DNA of 64,000 nt, from the NCBI RefSeq assembly GCF_058153355.1, contig NZ_CM177019.1; one strand, 5' to 3'. The position numbers and the translations under genes are program-made. This document shows positions 5,108 to 58,886 of the stretch, one piece after another (the stretch's first letter is position 1; the number at the start of each line of letters is the position of its first letter). The notes beneath the pieces were generated by a model that saw nothing but the letters and a program-made list of their open reading frames with translations, had not been told where the DNA came from and ran no database searches.

Positions 5108-6739
5108 TTAGTGCTTCACAATGTACATATTCCGGGTGTAGGTATTATCCAGCGGATCTTTGCCGGTATAGCCACCAACCCACGGTTTCACCAGACGCGC
5201 ATTCACGTAGTAATAAACAGGAACAATGGCCGAATCCTTATCCAGCTGTTGTTCTGCTTTAGTGTACAGAGCTGTGCGCTGCGCCTCGTCAGTCGCTTTC
5301 AGCGTTTCCGCCATAATGCTGTCAAAGGCCGGGCTCTTATAATGCGCGGTATTCATCGAGCTGTTCGACAGCATGGTGTTCAGGAAGGAAGTTGGTTCGT
5401 TGTAGTCTGCACACCAGCCTGCACGGGCCACATCAAAAGTACCCTGGTGACGGGTGTCGAGGAACGTTTTCCACTCCTGGTTAACCAGTTTGACGTTTAC
5501 ACCAATGTTTTTCTTCCATAATGAAGAGGCAGCAATCGCCAGCTTTTTATGCAGATCGGAGGTGTTATACAACAGGTTGATGGTCAACGGTTTGTCTGCG
5601 GTATAACCCGCTTCAGCCAGCAGTTTTTTCGCTTCTTCGTTACGTTTTTCCTGGCTCCAGCCAAACCATTCCGGCTGAGTCAATTTTGCGCCATCAGTAT
5701 ACGGTGGAGTGTAACCATAGGCGGGCATGTCGCCCTGCGCTTTCACTTTATTAACAATGATATCGCGGTCCATACCCAGTTTCAGTGCGGTACGCACACG
5801 TACATCGTTGAATGGCGGTTTCTGGTTGTTAATTTCGTAATAATAAGTGCACAGGTATGGATCAACGTGAACTTCGTCCGGGATCTCTTTTTTCAGCTTC
5901 TGGAACAATTCGATCGGCATGTTGTTATAAGTCATGTCGATTTCACCACTACGGTAGCGGTTGACATCGGTAACTTCAGAAGCAATAGGCAAATAGGTTA
6001 CCTGGTTAATAACGGTTTTCGCGTTGTTCCAGTAGGTTGGGCTGCGTTCAAGAACGATTCGTTCGTTTACGACCCAATCTTTTAAGGTATAGGCACCGTT
6101 GGTGATGATATTACCAGGCTGGGTCCATTTTTCGCCGAATTTCTCGATAGCGGCTTTTGGCACCGGTGAAGTTGATGGGTGAACAAGTAATTTATAGAAG
6201 TACGGAACAGGTTCACTTAAGGTGACTTCTAATGTGTGATCATCAATAGCTTTCACGCCGAGATCGGTAATCGGTTTTTTCCCTTCAAGAATTTCATCAA
6301 TACCGGCGATATGCCCATATTGCAGATAACTGGCATACGGAGAAGCGGTGTTTGGATCAACAGAACGTTGCCAGCTATACACAAAGTCTTGTGCTGTGAC
6401 TGGCGTGCCATCAGACCATTTCGCATCTTTACGCAAATGGAAGGTCCAGACTTTCGCGTCTTTATTATCCCAGGATTCAGCGACGCCAGGTGCCGGATGA
6501 CCGTCAAGATCGCTGACCAGTAAGCCTTCAAACAGGTCTCGGCTGATATTAGACTCCGGAACACCTTCAATTTTATGCGGATCTAATGACTGAACTTCTG
6601 AACCATTGTTACGTACCAGCGTTTGTTTTTCCGCCAGTGTGACGCCTGCGGGTACATCAGCTGCCAGCGCGACATTCCCTGCCATAAGCGCAGCCAGAAC
6701 GCCAGCTGCTACTAAACTTCTCTTGGTGATGTTGGTCAT
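5108..6739 (-). CDS. oppA: periplasmic oligopeptide-binding protein OppA
   Basis: ORF 5108..6811; start placed at the internal ATG giving MTNITKRSLVAAGVLAALMAGNVALA signal peptide (543 aa). Confidence 0.9.
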   Translation of the reverse strand: MTNITKRSLVAAGVLAALMAGNVALAADVPAGVTLAEKQTLVRNNGSEVQSLDPHKIEGVPESNISRDLFEGLLVSDLDGHPAPGVAESWDNKDAKVWTFHLRKDAKWSDGTPVTAQDFVYSWQRSVDPNTASPYASYLQYGHIAGIDEILEGKKPITDLGVKAIDDHTLEVTLSEPVPYFYKLLVHPSTSPVPKAAIEKFGEKWTQPGNIITNGAYTLKDWVVNERIVLERSPTYWNNAKTVINQVTYLPIASEVTDVNRYRSGEIDMTYNNMPIELFQKLKKEIPDEVHVDPYLCTYYYEINNQKPPFNDVRVRTALKLGMDRDIIVNKVKAQGDMPAYGYTPPYTDGAKLTQPEWFGWSQEKRNEEAKKLLAEAGYTADKPLTINLLYNTSDLHKKLAIAASSLWKKNIGVNVKLVNQEWKTFLDTRHQGTFDVARAGWCADYNEPTSFLNTMLSNSSMNTAHYKSPAFDSIMAETLKATDEAQRTALYTKAEQQLDKDSAIVPVYYYVNARLVKPWVGGYTGKDPLDNTYTRNMYIVKH

Positions 6740-7475
6740 TGTTTTTTGGACTCCCTCATTATAATTACTGGTATTAACCAGCATGTGTAATCCCGGATTG
6801 GGACCCTGCACAGGCTCGGAGACTTTCTGCTGTCAGGTTACTTTATCGTTACGGATTGCTATCACCGACTTTATTTATTCTGGTGATTCAGACGATCACC
6901 TTATGTCGATTCGTACTGTGTCTCCCCTGTCGAGACACATTATTCTTTTGCGACGCTCTTTAATTGTTAATTATTCTCATTACCAATAAAAATCGCCTGG
7001 CGGTTGGTCGGAAAGTACCAAATGCGCTTCTTACTCGCCAATACATTTTGCAAAATTGTTAAGCAATTCTCTTTTATTGACCGTATCAGAATCTATAGCT
7101 TGTATCCATGTCTTAACAAACATCTTTCAATTCAATCAAATAGAGATTGGTTAAGCATGTCTATCTTTTCTGATTACAGTTCCAGTAGTGAAATGCACAA
7201 TAATTTAACAATTGATTGTTATTTAGCACTTTCCTCTACCAAAGGCAGTGGAATTACTAATATCATTTCAATTATTCTTCAGCAAGCCCAGGATTATGAT
7301 GTGGCGAAAATAACATGATGGTGAGGAGAAACAGTTAAGGAAATCCTTATAACCAACTCTAATTTAAGAAGAATATTTTTACCCATTCCTATTGCTTTTG
7401 GTAACTGCACCGGAACAAAGTAAAAATAATGACGAAGTAAACGGAGCATGGCAGCTCCGTTTCATTTGAAAGGAA

Positions 7476-8123
7476 TTAATTAAGCAAGCCGGGGAAAATC
7501 CCCTTAATACCAGTAACGATAAATTCAATCCCCAATGCCATCAGCAATAGCCCCATAATACGCGTAATCACGTTGATGCCGGTCTGGCGTAAAACCCGTA
7601 CCAGCCACGGTGCCATGCGGAACAATCCCCAGCAACATAAAGCGAACAAAGCAATAGCCACAAAGAAACCAAACAGATAGCTAATGCTGTGATAACGCGT
7701 ACCCCAGACGATGGTAGAACTGATCGCCCCTGGCCCCGCCATCAACGGCAACGCCAACGGCACCACACCAATGCTTTCACGTACCGCGGTTTCTGATTTT
7801 TCTTGCTTGTTCTGTTTATCCTCGCCAAGCTTGCCGCTGATCATCGACATCGCTATTGTCACCACCAGGATGCCACCGGCGATACGGAATGAATCAATTG
7901 ATATACCAAAAAGTTGTAGAATCGTGTCGCCGAGAAAAAGCGAGATCCACAAGATAATGGCCACAGACAGGTTGGCTGTAAGGTTCGTTTTGTTTCGCGC
8001 TGCCGCTGTCTGATAACTGGTCATGCTGATAAAGACGGGAATAATCCCTACCGGGTTGACCAGCGCAAATAACCCGATGAAAAATTTGAAGTAAACGGGA
8101 AAATCAAAAAGGGTCTGAATCAC
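7476..8123 (-). CDS. ychE: MarC-family inner membrane protein YchE
   Basis: 215-aa hydrophobic ORF; position between oppA and adhE. Confidence 0.8.
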   Translation of the reverse strand: MIQTLFDFPVYFKFFIGLFALVNPVGIIPVFISMTSYQTAAARNKTNLTANLSVAIILWISLFLGDTILQLFGISIDSFRIAGGILVVTIAMSMISGKLGEDKQNKQEKSETAVRESIGVVPLALPLMAGPGAISSTIVWGTRYHSISYLFGFFVAIALFALCCWGLFRMAPWLVRVLRQTGINVITRIMGLLLMALGIEFIVTGIKGIFPGLLN

Positions 8124-18533: not shown

Positions 18534-19376
18534 ATGCATTCACTCCAACGTAAAGTTCTGCGTACTATTTGTCCGGACCAAAAAGGTCTGATCGCACGTA
18601 TTACCAATATTTGCTACAAGCACGAGTTAAATATCGTGCAGAACAATGAATTTGTTGATCACCGTACCGGGCGCTTTTTTATGCGCACGGAACTGGAAGG
18701 AATTTTTAATGATTCCACCCTGCTGGCGGATCTCGACAGCGCATTGCCAGAAGGCTCCGTACGTGAGCTGAATCCTGCCGGTCGTCGCCGGATAGTGATT
18801 CTGGTCACTAAAGAGGCGCATTGCCTTGGCGATTTGTTGATGAAAGCCAATTACGGCGGCCTGGATGTCGAAATCGCGGCAGTTATTGGTAACCACGATA
18901 CTTTACGTTCTCTGGTTGAGCGTTTTGATATTCCGTTTGAGCTGGTAAGTCATGAAGGATTAAGTCGCAACGAGCACGATCAAAAGATGGCGGATGCCAT
19001 TGATGCTTATCAGCCTGACTACGTGGTGCTGGCGAAGTATATGCGGGTATTAACGCCAGAATTTGTGGCACGCTTCCCGAATAAGATCATCAATATTCAC
19101 CATTCATTCCTGCCAGCGTTTATCGGCGCACGTCCTTATCACCAGGCCTATGAACGTGGCGTGAAGATTATTGGCGCAACCGCTCACTATGTGAATGACA
19201 ATCTGGACGAAGGTCCAATCATCATGCAGGACGTTATTCATGTCGATCATACCTACACAGCTGAAGATATGATGCGCGCAGGTCGTGACGTCGAGAAAAA
19301 CGTCTTAAGTCGCGCACTCTACAAAGTACTGGCGCAGCGCGTCTTTGTTTACGGTAATCGGACGATTATTCTTTAA
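18534..19376 (+). CDS. purU: formyltetrahydrofolate deformylase
   Basis: 280-aa ORF with N-terminal ACT domain and formyltransferase domain. Confidence 0.93.
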   Translation: MHSLQRKVLRTICPDQKGLIARITNICYKHELNIVQNNEFVDHRTGRFFMRTELEGIFNDSTLLADLDSALPEGSVRELNPAGRRRIVILVTKEAHCLGDLLMKANYGGLDVEIAAVIGNHDTLRSLVERFDIPFELVSHEGLSRNEHDQKMADAIDAYQPDYVVLAKYMRVLTPEFVARFPNKIINIHHSFLPAFIGARPYHQAYERGVKIIGATAHYVNDNLDEGPIIMQDVIHVDHTYTAEDMMRAGRDVEKNVLSRALYKVLAQRVFVYGNRTIIL

Positions 19377-19458
19377 TCGCCAGCAAAATAGAACTGGTTG
19401 CCTTTAATCCGTTACGGATGAAAATTACGCAACCAGTTCATTTTTCTCAACGTAACCC

Positions 19459-19494
19459 TTTACAGCGGCGTGTCATTTGATATGATGCGCCCCG
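19459..19494 (+). promoter_or_regulatory. tyrT promoter (-35 TTTACA, 16-bp spacer, -10 TATGAT, GC-rich discriminator GCGCCCCGC)
   Basis: consensus-like sigma70 hexamers about 45 bp upstream of the mature tRNA 5' end; GC-rich discriminator characteristic of stringently controlled stable-RNA promoters. Confidence 0.7.
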
Positions 19495-19536
19495 CTTCCC
19501 CACAAGGGAGCAGGCCAGTAAAAAGCATTACCCCGT

Positions 19537-19621
19537 GGTGGGGTTCCCGAGCGGCCAAAGGGAGCAGACTGTAAATCTTCCGTCATCGACTTCGAAGGTT
19601 CGAATCCTTCCCCCACCACCA
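19537..19621 (+). tRNA. tyrT: tRNA-Tyr (anticodon GUA), variant copy with G-to-T change in the 3' strand of the anticodon stem at 19579
   Basis: 85-nt sequence ending CCA; identical to the second copy except one base (UCUUC instead of UCUGC). Confidence 0.85.
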
Positions 19622-19655
19622 TCTCAAGCATTACATCAAAATTTGAATTATCCCT

Positions 19656-19740
<85 letters not shown>

Positions 19741-19985
19741 TCACTTTCAAAAACCCCTGTATTCTCCAACGAATCCGTAACTGAATATTCTGCCCATACG
19801 GGGAAGGATGAGAAGCTTCGACTAAGGTTCGACTCGAGCGCCAGCGAGAGAGCGTTGCCGCAGGCAACGACCCGTAGGGCGAAGCGCGCAGCGCTGAGTA
19901 ATCCTTCCCCCACCACCATCACTTTCAAAAACCCCTGTATTCTCCAACGAATCCGTAACTGAATATTCTGCCCATACGGGGAAGG

Positions 19986-20075
19986 ATGAGAAGCTTCGAC
20001 CAAGGTTCGACTCGAGCGCCAGCGAGAGAGCGTTGCCGCAGGCAACGACCCGTAGGGCGAAGCGCGCAGCGCTGA
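19986..20075 (+). CDS. tpr: protamine-like Arg-rich 29-aa peptide (tpr-type ORF, repeat unit 2)
   Basis: [38 protein letters not shown] inside the repeat unit. Confidence 0.45.
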
Positions 20076-20163
20076 GTAATCCTTCCCCCACCACCATCAC
20101 TTTCAAAAGTTCCTGAAATCCCCAACAAATCCGCAATTAAATATTCTGCCCATACGGGGAAGG

Positions 20164-20253
20164 ATGAGAAACTTCGACCAAGGTTCGACTCGAGCGCCAG
20201 CGAGAGAGCGTTGCCGCAGGCAACGACCCGTAGGGCGAAGCGCGCAGCGCTGA
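20164..20253 (+). CDS. tpr: protamine-like Arg-rich 29-aa peptide (tpr-type ORF, repeat unit 3)
   Basis: [32 protein letters not shown]; same frame and position within the repeat unit. Confidence 0.4.
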
Positions 20254-20341
20254 GTAATCCTTCCCCCACCACCATCACTTTCAAAAGTTCCTGAAATCCC
20301 CAACAAATCCGCAATTAAATATTCTGCCCATACGGGGAAGG

Positions 20342-20431
20342 ATGAGAAACTTCGACCAAGGTTCGACTCGAGCGCCAGCGAGAGAGCGTTGCCGCAGGCA
20401 ACGACCCGTAGGGCGAAGCGCGCAGCGCTGA
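20342..20431 (+). CDS. tpr: protamine-like Arg-rich 29-aa peptide (tpr-type ORF, repeat unit 4)
   Basis: identical to the unit 3 ORF. Confidence 0.4.
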
Positions 20432-20620
20432 GTAATCCTTCCCCCACCACCATCACACCTTTAAATACTCAAAACCTGTTACTTCAAGCTAATTTGCCCC
20501 GTGGCACCGCGTTTTCCGGACCTACAATATCCTCCCCTGTAGGTCAGATAAGCGAATCACTCCGCACCGTGCCCATAAAAAAACCCCGCCGAAGCAGGGT
20601 CTATGTGAACTAAAATTCGC

Positions 20621-53596: not shown

Positions 53597-55516
53597 TCAT
53601 ACCCGGCGCTTAAACTGCCCTGCATCAATGCCATGTTGCTTCATTTTCCGCCACAGCGTAGTGCGGCCGATTCCAAGTAAAGCCGACATTTCCTGAATGC
53701 GACCGCCTGTGACCTGGGCTGCGTTAATAATTGCCTCTTTTTCAACTTCCGCAAATGACAGACTGGTGGAAAGGCGAGTGGCGCTGACATCATCTGTCGC
53801 CTGCTCGGTAAACAGATGTTCAGGCAAATCACTGACGCGAATGCGCCCGTTATCACTACTCAGAGCAAGATTCTCGATGACGCTGTAAAGTTCAAAATCG
53901 TTGCCTGGCCATGCACAAGAAACCAGGCGAGCGAGGGCATCGTCATCAATTTTCAGACGCGTAGAGAAGCGTTTTTCAAGACTGCGTAATTTGTTATTCA
54001 CCAGCGCCGGAATGCTGCCACGCCGCATACGCAGAGGCGGGATGGTAATTTCAAATGCATGCAGCGCGTAATACAGCTGGCGACTAAAGCGATTTTGTTC
54101 CACCAGCATTGCCAGGTCCGCGGTCGTTGTGGCAATCACTTTGACATCAATTGGTATTAAACGCCGCGCATCCAGTCGCGTGATAACACCCTGCTTGATA
54201 ACCTGAAGCAAAGCAGACTGTAACTCCACCGCCAGATATTCAATCTTTTCAAGAAACAGCGTGCCGCCGTGCGCCAGTTCCAGTCGACTCAGACGACCAT
54301 TTTCATTGTCCGTGCGATCGCCGCCAATAAATTCTTCCGCCAGCGCCGCATCACCATATAACTCACAATTGACGGCGATGTAGGGACCTGCTGCACGCTC
54401 ACTTTCATTATGAATTGCCTGACTTAGCAGTGCCTTGCCTACGCCCTCTTCGCCACAAAGCAAAACAGGAAAGCTACTACGCGCCGCCTGGCGGCCAAAA
54501 TGAATCAAGCGGCGAGTTTGCGGATCGTCCTGTGGCATATGAGCGAAGGTATGGCTGACTTTTCCCAATTGACTGGTCATCAACTGCCGCATCTGTTCCA
54601 CGGGATGGAGCAACAAAATAAAGCTGGTTCCCTGCGTTTCTATTATCGGTTTAAGGGTTATCACAGCATCAATAAACTGGTGCTGACTTTCAAAGGTTGC
54701 TTCTACGTGTTTGAGCGGATGTGCCTGTTTTATTGCTTGTTGCAATACAGCGGGTAACGTTAAGAGTTCAGTGATCGCCCTTCCCTGACTTGCCGTCGCG
54801 TCAAGGCGCAAGACTCGCGCCGCCTGGGCATTGATAAATTGCAAATTACCCTGCTCGTCCCAGCTAATCACGCCATCGTCCATACTTTCCAGCAAGGCGT
54901 TAAGTTGATTTAAATGTCGGTTTGTTTCAGCCAGTAAATTGTCGGTCAGCAGTAAGTTTCCTACCTCGCGTGCAATTGCCAGCGTCAACGGCAAATCAGC
55001 TGCGGTGGTTTGCTTAACCGGACACGCCAAAGCTATCGTTCCCGTTAATCGGCCCTTGCTGTCAAACAGTGGCGTTGCACAAAATGCCCAATCCCAGAGC
55101 GCCTGTTTGAAATGTTGATCGGCCATCGTTTTCACTGCCTGACCAGAAATAGCCGCTAACGATAGCGCACAGGTACCAATAATTCCCTCTGCGCAATACG
55201 TGCCGTCATTGAATCCCAGGACACTAAGCTGGTGCAGCGTTTGTGGATCACCAAAACGACTAAGGATGCAGGCGGTTTCATCAAGGATGAACAGTCCGCA
55301 CGCCCGCGATTCCATATATTCCCAGGCATCTTCCAGCGCAGCCTGCCCGAGCGTCAGCATCGCTTTCTTACGCCGATAGATAGAAGCAAATGTCACGCCC
55401 TGGGCCTGGTGCGGTACGCTCCATGTCTCCCGTTTCATCAGTTTATTGCATCGCTCCCAGGAGGCTGCAATTAAGGGAGATATGCCCCGTTCATCGTTGT
55501 TAAAAGCGCCACTCAT
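53597..55516 (-). CDS. dhaR: dha operon transcriptional activator DhaR
   Basis: ORF 53597..55597; ATG at 55516 gives 639 aa MSGAFNNDERGISPL...; AAA+ central domain (GEEGVGK) and C-terminal Fis-type HTH. Confidence 0.9.
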   Translation of the reverse strand: MSGAFNNDERGISPLIAASWERCNKLMKRETWSVPHQAQGVTFASIYRRKKAMLTLGQAALEDAWEYMESRACGLFILDETACILSRFGDPQTLHQLSVLGFNDGTYCAEGIIGTCALSLAAISGQAVKTMADQHFKQALWDWAFCATPLFDSKGRLTGTIALACPVKQTTAADLPLTLAIAREVGNLLLTDNLLAETNRHLNQLNALLESMDDGVISWDEQGNLQFINAQAARVLRLDATASQGRAITELLTLPAVLQQAIKQAHPLKHVEATFESQHQFIDAVITLKPIIETQGTSFILLLHPVEQMRQLMTSQLGKVSHTFAHMPQDDPQTRRLIHFGRQAARSSFPVLLCGEEGVGKALLSQAIHNESERAAGPYIAVNCELYGDAALAEEFIGGDRTDNENGRLSRLELAHGGTLFLEKIEYLAVELQSALLQVIKQGVITRLDARRLIPIDVKVIATTTADLAMLVEQNRFSRQLYYALHAFEITIPPLRMRRGSIPALVNNKLRSLEKRFSTRLKIDDDALARLVSCAWPGNDFELYSVIENLALSSDNGRIRVSDLPEHLFTEQATDDVSATRLSTSLSFAEVEKEAIINAAQVTGGRIQEMSALLGIGRTTLWRKMKQHGIDAGQFKRRV

Positions 55517-55603
55517 ATCCCGCATCCTTTGTGACAAAAGGTGTTCCGGCTCGCAATTTTTAGTATTAAAACGCGTAAAAGTTTCAATATGGAACATTCA
55601 TTA

Positions 55604-55628
55604 AAACATATGTTTCACCATGAAACAT
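55604..55628. promoter_or_regulatory. overlapping inverted repeats AAACATATGTTT and ATGTTTCA-CCA-TGAAACAT in the dhaR/dhaK divergent region; candidate DhaR operator
   Basis: perfect palindromes seen directly in sequence between divergent dhaR and dhaKLM. Confidence 0.4.
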
Positions 55629-55743
55629 AATTTGGGCTAATTTTCTTTTCCCTTACCTGATGCACAATGGATTTATCGGCAGTCAGTGGTCGCCGTGTCG
55701 TTGAACATCATCCATGCCCTACCGTAATTGCTGGAGCAAGATA

Positions 55744-56814
55744 ATGAAAAAATTGATCAATGATGTGCAAGACGTTCTGGACGAACAACTGGCGGGTCTG
55801 GCGAAAGCGCATTCATCGCTGACACTGCATCAGGATCCGGTGTATGTCACCCGAGCTGATGCCCCCGTTGCAGGAAAAGTCGCCCTGCTGTCGGGCGGCG
55901 GCAGCGGACACGAACCGATGCACTGCGGTTATATCGGTCAAGGGATGCTTTCGGGAGCCTGTCCGGGCGAAATATTCACCTCACCGACGCCCGATAAAAT
56001 TTTTGAATGCGCCATGCAAGTTGATGGCGGCGAAGGTGTACTGCTGATTATCAAAAATTACACCGGCGATATTCTTAACTTCGAAACAGCAACAGAATTA
56101 CTGCACGATAGCGGCGTAAAAGTGACCACCGTGGTCATTGATGACGACGTTGCAGTAAAAGACAGTCTTTATACCGCTGGGCGGCGCGGCGTTGCCAACA
56201 CCGTATTAATCGAAAAACTCGTAGGCGCAGCGGCAGAACGTGGCGACTCGCTGGAGGCTTGTGCACAACTGGGGCGTAAGTTGAACAATCAGGGCCATTC
56301 TATTGGGATCGCCCTCGGTGCCTGTACCGTTCCTGCCGCGGGAAAACCTTCTTTTACGCTGGCAGATAATGAGATGGAGTTTGGCGTCGGCATTCATGGT
56401 GAGCCAGGTATTGACCGCCGTCCCTTCTCTTCCCTTGATCAAACCGTCGATGAAATGTTCGACACCCTGCTGGAAAATGGCTCATACCATCGCACTTTGC
56501 GTTTCTGGGATTATCAACAAGGCAGCTGGCAGGAAGAATCACAAACCAAACAACCGCTCCAGTCTGGCGATCGGGTGATTGCGCTGGTTAACAATCTTGG
56601 CGCAACTCCGCTTTCTGAGCTGTACGGCGTCTATAACCGCCTGACCACACGTTGCCAGCAAGCGGGATTGACTATCGAGCGTAATTTAATTGGCGCGTAC
56701 TGCACCTCACTGGATATGACCGGTTTCTCAATCACCTTACTGAAAGTTGATGACGAAACGCTGGCACTCTGGGACGCCCCGGTCCACACCCCGGCGCTTA
56801 ACTGGGGTAAATAA
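55744..56814 (+). CDS. dhaK: dihydroxyacetone kinase, dihydroxyacetone-binding subunit DhaK
   Basis: ORF 55714..56814; ATG at 55744 gives 356 aa MKKLINDVQDVLDEQLAGL... Confidence 0.95.
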   Translation: MKKLINDVQDVLDEQLAGLAKAHSSLTLHQDPVYVTRADAPVAGKVALLSGGGSGHEPMHCGYIGQGMLSGACPGEIFTSPTPDKIFECAMQVDGGEGVLLIIKNYTGDILNFETATELLHDSGVKVTTVVIDDDVAVKDSLYTAGRRGVANTVLIEKLVGAAAERGDSLEACAQLGRKLNNQGHSIGIALGACTVPAAGKPSFTLADNEMEFGVGIHGEPGIDRRPFSSLDQTVDEMFDTLLENGSYHRTLRFWDYQQGSWQEESQTKQPLQSGDRVIALVNNLGATPLSELYGVYNRLTTRCQQAGLTIERNLIGAYCTSLDMTGFSITLLKVDDETLALWDAPVHTPALNWGK

Positions 56815-56824
56815 GGAGATAACC

Positions 56825-57457
56825 ATGTCACTGAGCAGAACTCAAATTGTTAACTGGCTCACTCGCTGTGGAGAAATTTTCAGCACCGAGAGCGAGTATC
56901 TTACCGGACTGGATCGCGAAATTGGCGACGCTGACCACGGGCTAAATATGAACCGTGGCTTTAGCAAGGTGGTAGAAAAACTCCCTGCTATCGCAGATAA
57001 AGATATCGGTTTCATTCTCAAGAATACCGGCATGACGCTACTTTCCAGCGTCGGAGGTGCCAGTGGTCCGCTGTTCGGTACCTTCTTTATCCGCGCCGCA
57101 CAGACAACCCAGGCACGGCAAAGCCTGACGCTGGAAGAACTGTATCAGATGTTCCGCGATGGTGTAGACGGCGTAATCAGTCGCGGGAAAGCCGAACCTG
57201 GCGATAAAACCATGTGTGATGTCTGGGTGCCGGTGGTGGAATCGTTACGTCAGTCCAGCGAGCAAAATCTCTCTGTTCCGGTGGCGCTCGAAGCCGCCAG
57301 TAGCGTCGCTGAATCCGCTGCACAAAGTACGATTACGATGCAAGCCCGCAAAGGCCGCGCCAGTTATCTCGGTGAACGCAGTATTGGTCACCAGGATCCC
57401 GGCGCGACCTCCGTGATGTTTATGATGCAAATGCTGGCGTTAGCCGCAAAAGAGTAA
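56825..57457 (+). CDS. dhaL: dihydroxyacetone kinase, ADP-binding subunit DhaL
   Basis: 210-aa product from ATG 56825 MSLSRTQIVNWLTRCGEIF... Confidence 0.93.
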   Translation: MSLSRTQIVNWLTRCGEIFSTESEYLTGLDREIGDADHGLNMNRGFSKVVEKLPAIADKDIGFILKNTGMTLLSSVGGASGPLFGTFFIRAAQTTQARQSLTLEELYQMFRDGVDGVISRGKAEPGDKTMCDVWVPVVESLRQSSEQNLSVPVALEAASSVAESAAQSTITMQARKGRASYLGERSIGHQDPGATSVMFMMQMLALAAKE

Positions 57458-57467
57458 GGAAATGGTG

Positions 57468-58886
57468 ATGGTAAACCTGGTCATAGTTTCACATAGCGCC
57501 CGACTGGGAGAAGGTGTCGGTGAATTAGCCCGTCAGATGTTAATGAGTGATAGCTGTAAAATCGCCATTGCCGCGGGAATTGACGATCCCCAAAATCCCA
57601 TTGGTACCGATGCCGTCAAAGTGATGGAGGCCATCGAGTCCGTTGCCGATGCCGACCATGTGCTGGTGATGATGGATATGGGTAGCGCATTATTGAGTGC
57701 TGAAACTGCACTGGAGTTGCTGGCCCCCGAGATCGCCGCAAAAGTACGTTTGTGTGCGGCACCGTTAGTCGAAGGTACACTGGCAGCAACAGTCAGCGCG
57801 GCCTCGGGAGCAGATATCGACAAAGTTATCTATGACGCCATGCATGCGCTGGAAGCCAAACGTGAACAACTGGGTTTACCGTCCTCCGACACCGAAATCG
57901 CTGACACATGTCCTCCGTACGATGAAGAAGCCCATTCTCTGGCCGTGGTCATTAAAAACCGTAACGGCCTTCATGTACGTCCGGCCTCCCGGCTGGTTTA
58001 TACCTTATCGACATTTAATGCCGATATGTTGCTGGAGAAAAACGGTAAATGCGTCACGCCGGAGAGTATTAACCAGATCGCGCTACTACAAGTCCGCTAT
58101 AACGATACGCTGCGCCTGATTGCGAAAGGGCCAGAAGCTGAAGAGGCGCTGGTTGCTTTCCGTCAGCTGGCTGAAGATAACTTTGGTGAAACGGAAGAAG
58201 TTGCTCCGCCTACTCAGCGGCCCATTCCGCCTGTTTCGGGTAAAGCCTTTTATTATCAACCAGTTTTATGTACGGTACAGGCAAAATCAACTCTGACCGT
58301 GGAAGAAGAACAAGAACGATTACGTCAGGCAATTGACTTCACGTTATTAGATCTGATGACGTTAACAGCGAAAGCAGAAGCGAGCGGGCTTGACGATATT
58401 GCCGCAATCTTTTCTGGTCACCATACACTGTTAGATGATCCAGAACTGCTGGCGGCGGCAAACGAATTTCTTCAGCATGAGCATTGCACAGCAGAATATG
58501 CCTGGCAGCACGTTCTTAAAGAACTAAGCCAGCAATACCAACAACTGGATGATGAATATTTACAGGCTCGCTATATCGATGTGGACGATCTTCTACATCG
58601 CACCCTAATCCACCTGACGCAAACGAAAGAAGAACTCCCGCAATTTAACTCGCCAACCATTTTACTGGCGGAGAACATTTATCCGTCCACGGTTCTGCAA
58701 CTGGATCCGGCGGTTGTAAAAGGGATCTGCCTTAGCACCGGAAGTCTGGTATCCCACAGTGCCCTAATCGCCCACGAACTGGGGATTGGCTGGATTTGCC
58801 AGCAGGGTGAGAAACTGTATGCGATACAACCTGAAGAAACGTTAACGCTGGACGTTAAAACGCAACGTTTCAGCCATCAGGGATAA
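57468..58886 (+). CDS. dhaM: dihydroxyacetone kinase phosphotransfer subunit DhaM (EIIA-HPr-EI fusion)
   Basis: ORF 57462..58886; 472 aa from second ATG; EIIA-Man-like N-terminus, HPr-like middle and EI-like C-terminus. Confidence 0.9.
   Translation: MVNLVIVSHSARLGEGVGELARQMLMSDSCKIAIAAGIDDPQNPIGTDAVKVMEAIESVADADHVLVMMDMGSALLSAETALELLAPEIAAKVRLCAAPLVEGTLAATVSAASGADIDKVIYDAMHALEAKREQLGLPSSDTEIADTCPPYDEEAHSLAVVIKNRNGLHVRPASRLVYTLSTFNADMLLEKNGKCVTPESINQIALLQVRYNDTLRLIAKGPEAEEALVAFRQLAEDNFGETEEVAPPTQRPIPPVSGKAFYYQPVLCTVQAKSTLTVEEEQERLRQAIDFTLLDLMTLTAKAEASGLDDIAAIFSGHHTLLDDPELLAAANEFLQHEHCTAEYAWQHVLKELSQQYQQLDDEYLQARYIDVDDLLHRTLIHLTQTKEELPQFNSPTILLAENIYPSTVLQLDPAVVKGICLSTGSLVSHSALIAHELGIGWICQQGEKLYAIQPEETLTLDVKTQRFSHQG

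Follow-up and report, generated by a model that had tools for sequence, protein, structure and literature searches.

Control of the dhaK promoter by DhaR has been known since 2005, when Bachler et al. (EMBO J 24:283) reportedly described a DhaR-dependent dhaKLM promoter and probably mapped the binding region; DhaR sites in the dhaR/dhaK spacer are presumably also listed in EcoCyc and RegulonDB. Control of dhaKLM by DhaR is stated in PMC6643234 and PMC5890353, and signalling to the regulator is described in PMC6643234, PMC10084136 and PMC5890353 as being exerted by DhaL-ADP (on) and by DhaK (off). DhaR is grouped in the TyrR family (PMC8743547), and drives a sigma-70 promoter (PMC10084136, PMC5890353). 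As regards E. coli, the result presented here is an essentially ordinary one, in which sequence comparison places a known regulator at its probable sites.

The window (the whole 64-kb stretch of DNA that was analysed) is part of an E. coli chromosome; over 55400-55800 it matches strain 2013C-4282 with 100% and K-12 with 95% identity. The original prediction had assigned two nested palindromes to the control region between divergently transcribed dhaR and dhaK, and this assignment was confirmed by the PGAP annotation of E. coli records and by Pfam (Table 1), the divergent spacer extending over 227 bp (55517-55743). The encoded DhaR has the Pfam architecture GAF-PAS-Sigma54_activat-AAA_lid-HTH_8, in which the AAA+ part has the fold of a sigma-54 interaction domain, and its 318 N-terminal amino acids match the solved DhaR sensor domain (PDB 4LRX/4LRY/4LRZ). 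As read from the protein sequence, the GAFTGA loop is replaced by GGDRTDNENG, with EEFIGGDRTDNENGRLSRLELAHGGTLFLEK standing at the GAFTGA place; the lack of this motif in DhaR is also reported in PMC10084136. The longest dhaR reading frame begins at an ATG at 55597, inside the distal box described below and 27 codons upstream of the annotated start. This 27-codon extension (55517-55597) is shown to be non-coding by 1-bp indels that occur among Escherichia species within 55517-55540.

Table 1. Coordinates, in the window, of the genes and control elements of the dhaR-dhaKLM locus
Feature	Position	Strand	Remarks
dhaR	53597-55516	-	639 aa; annotated by PGAP in E. coli records that are identical or nearly so; Pfam
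Weak third box-like element GTTCCGGCTCGCAAT	55543-55557	.	9/12 specified positions; centred 38 bp from IR1
Distal candidate DhaR box (IR1) GTTTCAATATGGAAC	55581-55595	.	Core GTTTCA-ATA-TGGAAC; extended 55579-55597
12-bp perfect palindrome AAACATATGTTT	55604-55615	.	Right half is the flank and the first left-arm bases of the proximal box
Proximal candidate DhaR box (IR2)	55612-55626	.	Core GTTTCA-CCA-TGAAAC; perfect arms reach 55609-55629
T-tract TTTTCTTTT	55641-55649	+	Lies where the -35 element of the DhaR-dependent dhaK promoter is predicted; putative role
Predicted YgfI/DhfA site GATGCACAATGGATTT	55659-55674	+	Overlaps the predicted -10 CACAAT; separate from both palindromes
Predicted -10 hexamer CACAAT	55663-55668	+	dhaK promoter; predicted start near 55675
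dhaK	55744-56814	+	Annotated by PGAP in the same E. coli records as dhaR; Pfam Dak1
dhaL	56825-57457	+	Second gene of dhaKLM
dhaM	57468-58886	+	Third gene of dhaKLM
dhaKLM operon	55744-58886	+	Regulated target

The larger of the two palindromes had been described as ATGTTTCA-CCA-TGAAACAT, with arms of 8 bp. This sequence is indeed found at 55610-55628, but its arms are one base pair longer than was claimed, the complete inverted repeat being TATGTTTCA-CCA-TGAAACATA (55609-55629), with arms of 9 bp. By chance, 64 kb should contain 1.85 inverted repeats with 9-bp arms and a spacer of 0-6 nt, and a 227-bp spacer about 0.007. A second, distal box, absent from the original prediction, is located 31 bp (three helical turns) upstream of this proximal box, and the repeat finder reported GTTTCAATATGGAACAT (55581-55597) as an 82% direct copy of GTTTCACCATGAAACAT (55612-55628). 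The degenerate core GTTYCANNNTGRAAC has two matches in the 64-kb window (0.01 expected), both of them in the dhaR/dhaK spacer, where the candidate boxes lie 118-163 bp upstream of the dhaK ATG.

Comparison of six Escherichia lineages indicated that the proximal core GTTTCA...TGAAAC is invariant, its 3-bp spacer being CCA, CTA (as in K-12, which retains the inverted repeat), TTG or TTA and its outermost arm bases being variable, and that the distal box is retained as GTTYC...GGAAC in all of them. In ST131, O80:H26 and strain 1105, private changes are found just outside the box cores. Conserved cores combined with variable 3-bp spacers and flanks are the pattern expected for an inverted repeat contacted by a protein. 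The boxes, their conservation and their pairing are thereby established at the level of sequence, and occupancy by DhaR is the probable reading of them.

The second palindrome of the original prediction, the 12-mer, exists, is perfect and lies exactly where it had been placed, as was verified by re-reading the sequence. Together with the larger repeat (given there as a 19-bp element) it had been proposed to form a DhaR operator offering two alternative dimer registers. Both palindromes are perfect in the window and have the bases ATGTTT in common, which is what this model draws on; it is nevertheless very improbable. The window contains 15 perfect 12-bp palindromes, against 18.0 +/- 4.3 expected from first-order Markov simulations, and since such palindromes thus occur at chance frequency, the 12-mer is unremarkable. 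It is perfect in no more than 18 of the 5,385 E. coli records (criterion: at least 99% identity to the window over 55575-55635). In K-12, ST131, O80:H26 and strain 1105 it is broken as AAGCATATGTTT, with a G at 55606, and it is likewise broken in four further Escherichia lineages, that is in all other Escherichia sequences examined; the corresponding position reads AAGAATATGTTT in Escherichia sp. MOD1 and AAGCATACGTTT in E. whittamii. The nesting of the two palindromes therefore depends on a single base, A55606, other lineages having G or further changes. No counterpart of the 12-mer was found at the dha promoters of the other genera compared.

The geometry of the two palindromes also argues against alternative registers. 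The half-sites of the 12-mer are arranged tail-to-tail and abut (AAACAT|ATGTTT), whereas those of the conserved box are arranged head-to-head with a 3-bp gap (GTTTCA-N3-TGAAAC), and because both orientation and spacing differ, the two arrangements would not be readable by one dimer geometry. Judged from the sequences compared, the 12-mer is a coincidence of the rare lineage represented by the window, with no function of its own, the proximal box having a left flank which A55606 completes to a palindrome by accident. Its proposed part in the operator is consequently abandoned here, and that of the larger repeat is retained.

A search of representative genomes with DhaR returned orthologous loci (53-73% identity), and these were examined for the boxes together with plasmid pKPN-262, whose DhaR is 74% identical to that of E. 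coli; all compared box-bearing genomes encode a DhaR orthologue (53-74% identity). The segment RTTLWRK of the DhaR helix-turn-helix is invariant in E. coli, Pluralibacter, Pantoea, Serratia and Klebsiella, which fits a common DNA target of the orthologues. The 15-bp core was also found at dha promoters of five genera besides Escherichia, and the box-to-box spacing is 31-33 bp in 18/18 promoter entries analysed. In Pluralibacter, two Pantoea species and an MGYG Enterobacteriaceae genome, dhaK and a gldA-dhaR operon are transcribed divergently, and there is one box pair for dhaK and one for gldA. Serratia has a single gldA-dhaKLM operon, convergent with dhaR (which does not adjoin the promoter), and one box pair in front of this operon. 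Plasmid pKPN-262 carries a Klebsiella-type dha regulon with the units dhaD-dhaR, dhaT and dhaB, where a first box pair is located upstream of dhaD, a second, in the other orientation, is directed at a dhaK1-like region that is broken, and a third lies between the dhaT and dhaB operons, reading towards dhaB.

With at most one mismatch allowed, 22 box matches were counted in 3.7 kb of dha promoter DNA versus 2 in 120 kb of flanking DNA; as the Serratia sites were already known when the pattern was relaxed to GTTNCA, this enrichment is partly circular and an exact P-value is not to be taken literally. The original E. coli-derived pattern gave the same picture. No boxes were found at gldA of E. 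coli, the 45 kb around this gene containing three scattered, unpaired matches, which corresponds to chance level.

The conservation of the boxes across genera also bears on two other readings of the repeat, namely a hairpin formed by RNA or DNA (a terminator, an attenuator or a cruciform) and a functionless chance palindrome. RNA of the segment 55575-55640 is predicted to fold to -12 kcal/mol (z = -2.2 versus shuffles), but this is just marginally better than shuffled sequence. Moreover, the stem is AT-rich, has a 3-nt loop and is not followed by a T-run, the scan of the spacer gave no terminator-like site, there was no Rfam match at E <= 1, and the repeat lies upstream of the predicted promoter. 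What is kept across genera is the core sequence itself, not mere pairing potential, along with two boxes at 31-33 bp, which argues for protein binding and leaves a hairpin or a chance palindrome with very little probability. The inverted repeat with 8-9-bp arms is very probably a DhaR site, as had been proposed, given that its core is conserved in Escherichia and recurs at the dha promoters of other genera. The best explanation of the repeats at 55612-55626 and 55581-55595 is, with good confidence, that they serve the dhaK promoter as its two DhaR boxes.

Several features of the related clusters were recorded alongside the scan. In Pluralibacter, Pantoea and the Klebsiella-type clusters (on pKPN-262 at 7275-7768 of the locus), a gldA/dhaD-dhaR operon with dhaR in second place has its own box pair, and this implies positive rather than negative autoregulation of dhaR in these relatives; dhaR of E. 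coli stands alone and is reportedly autorepressed, and gldA of E. coli, at 19342-20445 of the locus scanned, is devoid of boxes. On pKPN-262, the region where an ATP-dependent dhaK is expected (5290-7274 of the locus) has no listed gene and contains broken ORFs only (407 and 179 aa), and it is still faced by a full box pair, a T-tract and a CAGAAT -10 hexamer. One possibility is a pseudogene whose promoter has stayed intact, another a gap in the PLSDB gene table. The two boxes of Serratia sp. H1w, GTTACATAATGGAAC and GTTCCATTATGTAAC, mirror each other (1607-1653 of the locus), so that the 47-bp unit forms a larger palindrome; Serratia boxes have an A at the variable fourth position, which was unseen in the other genera compared.

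The dhaK promoter was searched for downstream of the boxes. A consensus sigma-70 scan found no promoter in the dhaR/dhaK spacer at its threshold, and a low-stringency scan returned TTTTCT-16-CACAAT, which includes the hexamer of Table 1. A second candidate of the loose scan, AAAACA-17-CATAAT (55603-55631), was rejected, as it falls within the proximal box and lacks conservation beyond Escherichia. With the start predicted near 55675, the box centres lie at about -56 and -87. The arrangement recurs elsewhere: Pluralibacter, Pantoea, Klebsiella and the MGYG Enterobacteriaceae genome have a run of 7-9 T that starts 13-15 nt past the proximal core (in Serratia, as an exception, the T run abuts the proximal box), and an nAnAnT hexamer begins 36-38 nt after the proximal core in 10/10 promoters from six genera (hand-counted), the intervening sequence being unrelated. 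This hexamer is CACAAT in E. coli, CAGAAT, GAGAAT or AAGAAT at the other dhaK promoters, and TATAGT, TACAGT or TAAAGT at the Serratia gldA and the Klebsiella dhaD and dhaB promoters. The promoter geometry is established by these distances, the start position and activation by DhaR being predictions.

Sites for sigma-54 polymerase were sought with the -24/-12 pattern TGGCAC-N5-TTGCW, and the best matches in the spacer have 3/11 specified positions wrong and do not lie downstream of the boxes. Taken together, the missing GAFTGA loop and the missing sigma-54 promoter agree with the published statement that DhaR acts at a sigma-70 promoter. The dhaK promoter looks like one of sigma-70 type in which a usable -35 hexamer is missing, so that it would depend on an activator. 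The position of the activated start is uncertain because Shimada et al. (PMC3946193) predicted, from RNA polymerase SELEX, a different, constitutive dhaK promoter nearer to the ATG (TTGAAC-16-CGTAAT, 55701-55728). The segment from the predicted start to the ATG (55676-55743) hardly varies among six Escherichia lineages and is better conserved than the coding sequence next to it; it contains that predicted constitutive promoter and an FNR-like sequence, TTGAACATCATCCA (2 mismatches). An upstream ATG at 55714, in frame with dhaK, accounts for an older DhaK model of 366 aa.

On the dhaR side, no promoter was identifiable by consensus, a TTGAAA within IR1 having no -10 hexamer at a workable distance; the promoter predicted by Shimada et al. 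(PMC3946193) is TTGCGA-17-CATAAG, at 55556-55528 on the minus strand. A third full box is absent 31 bp upstream of IR1, where 5/12 positions are wrong by eye. The weak box-like element GTTCCGGCTCGCAAT overlaps TTGCGA, the predicted -35 hexamer of dhaR, and is contained in a block, GACAAAAGGTGTTCCGGCTCGCAATTT (55533-55560), which is almost invariant across Escherichia, AAAAGGTGTTCCG..TCGCAA being nearly invariant as well. As a speculative proposal, this element could be the site of the reported dhaR autorepression.

The elements described above can be assembled into the following proposed mechanism. Each 15-bp box would take one DhaR dimer by means of the C-terminal pair of Fis-type helix-turn-helix domains, and the 31-bp spacing would bring the two dimers, centred at about -56 and -87, to the same face of the helix. 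Having a T-tract instead of a -35 hexamer, and a weak -10 element (CACAAT), the promoter would need an activator. In the signalling step, which is taken from the literature, DhaL-ADP binds the sensor domain of DhaR when dihydroxyacetone is present, and the bound regulator activates dhaKLM, whilst binding of DhaK holds DhaR inactive. A wider proposal is that a single rigid module is common to all DhaR-controlled promoters of the Enterobacterales, those of the Klebsiella 1,3-propanediol genes included. It would be composed of two GTTYCA-N3-TGRAAC boxes at a distance of 31-33 bp, a T-tract that usually replaces the -35 element, and a -10 hexamer 36-38 nt past the proximal box; this generalization is tentative and, in our judgement, rather doubtful.

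The inverted repeats were also considered as operators of another regulator of glycerol or dihydroxyacetone metabolism (GlpR, YgfI/DhfA, PtrR/YneJ, NtrC or CRP), which is improbable. The GlpR operator consensus is a 20-bp palindrome, WATGTTCGWT-AWCGAACATW. IR1 matches it at 16/20 positions, but with one half 1 bp out of register, as the GlpR operator is of even length and the spacing of GTTC...GAAC is off by 1 bp, and IR2 has at least 8 mismatches, so that the GlpR test was negative. Binding of YgfI and PtrR (ChIP-exo) and of NtrC (gSELEX) has been reported somewhere in the dhaK/dhaR spacer; however, the predicted YgfI site, GATGCACAATGGATTC (55659-55674), lies away from the repeats, and the CRP, FNR, TyrR and NtrC consensus sequences all fit them poorly, the best spacer match to the TyrR box TGTAAA-N6-TTTACA having 4/12 positions wrong. 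Furthermore, the boxes follow the promoters of the dha regulon, including those of Klebsiella dhaB/dhaT, and co-occur with DhaR, which favours DhaR as the protein that would bind them. GATGCACAAtGGATTC is listed as a predicted site of YgfI/DhfA, a LysR-type regulator, for dhaK (PMC9068703 Table S1); it is odd that a site attributed to an activator should be on top of a predicted -10 element.

The distribution of the locus was noted as well. Escherichia albertii NBRC 107761 has only the last 111 codons of dhaR, and neither dhaK nor a DhaR box at the locus, and this type strain seems to have lost the dha control region along with most of the system. The dhaR-dhaK region was found at 12 places on E. 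coli records labelled plasmid. Dha regulons of the Klebsiella/Citrobacter type are present on plasmids of E. coli, Klebsiella, Raoultella and Citrobacter, where they encode a DhaR about 72-74% identical to that of E. coli and adjoin a cobalamin adenosyltransferase gene. As dha regions occur on plasmids, the glycerol fermentation regulon is considered as mobile.

A full-text literature search, with the 2005 study outside its scope, found neither the box sequence nor a regulon-wide DhaR consensus. What remains as novelty is the cross-genus module of paired boxes, T-tract and -10 element, of which we could not find a description in the searchable literature. For the E. coli locus, the analysis corrects which of the two palindromes matters, and its practical value is modest. 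The box consensus and its fixed geometry could be useful for dihydroxyacetone or glycerol sensors based on DhaR and PdhaK, and for retuning the Klebsiella dha regulon in 1,3-propanediol production. The locus also offers a test case of a regulator derived from enhancer-binding proteins that would activate a sigma-70 promoter without a -35 element. If the rigid module is real, it would show how an AAA+ regulator without sigma-54 contact activates sigma-70 polymerase from about -56/-87, and it would yield a regulon-wide DhaR consensus.

Among known systems, the closest is the E. coli dhaKLM/DhaR system (Bachler et al. 2005), which has the same genes, the same divergent spacer and the same regulator, with no demonstrable difference. 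The Klebsiella/Citrobacter dha regulon has an orthologous DhaR (72-74%) and, in its Klebsiella-type form, the same geometry of paired boxes, T-tract and -10 element upstream of dhaD, upstream of dhaB and facing the broken dhaK1 region; it differs in that E. coli has a single box pair, at dhaKLM, its gldA lying elsewhere and without boxes. The enhancer-binding proteins of sigma-54 promoters (NtrC, NifA, ZraR) resemble the candidate arrangement in having tandem inverted-repeat sites spaced by whole turns upstream of the promoter and a regulator with a Fis-type HTH_8 domain. By contrast with their upstream activating sequences, dhaK has no -24/-12 promoter and DhaR no GAFTGA loop, and the dhaK boxes, at about -56/-87 and at a fixed distance from the -10 element, do not imply looping to a closed sigma-54 complex. 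TyrR is likewise a relative of the enhancer-binding proteins; it has an AAA+ core and an HTH at its C-terminus, and works at sigma-70 promoters through paired palindromic boxes upstream of or overlapping the promoter. It differs in its 18-bp box TGTAAA-N6-TTTACA, as compared with the candidate 15-bp DhaR box GTTYCA-N3-TGRAAC, and in its signal, which is an amino acid for TyrR and a protein partner (DhaL/DhaK) for DhaR.
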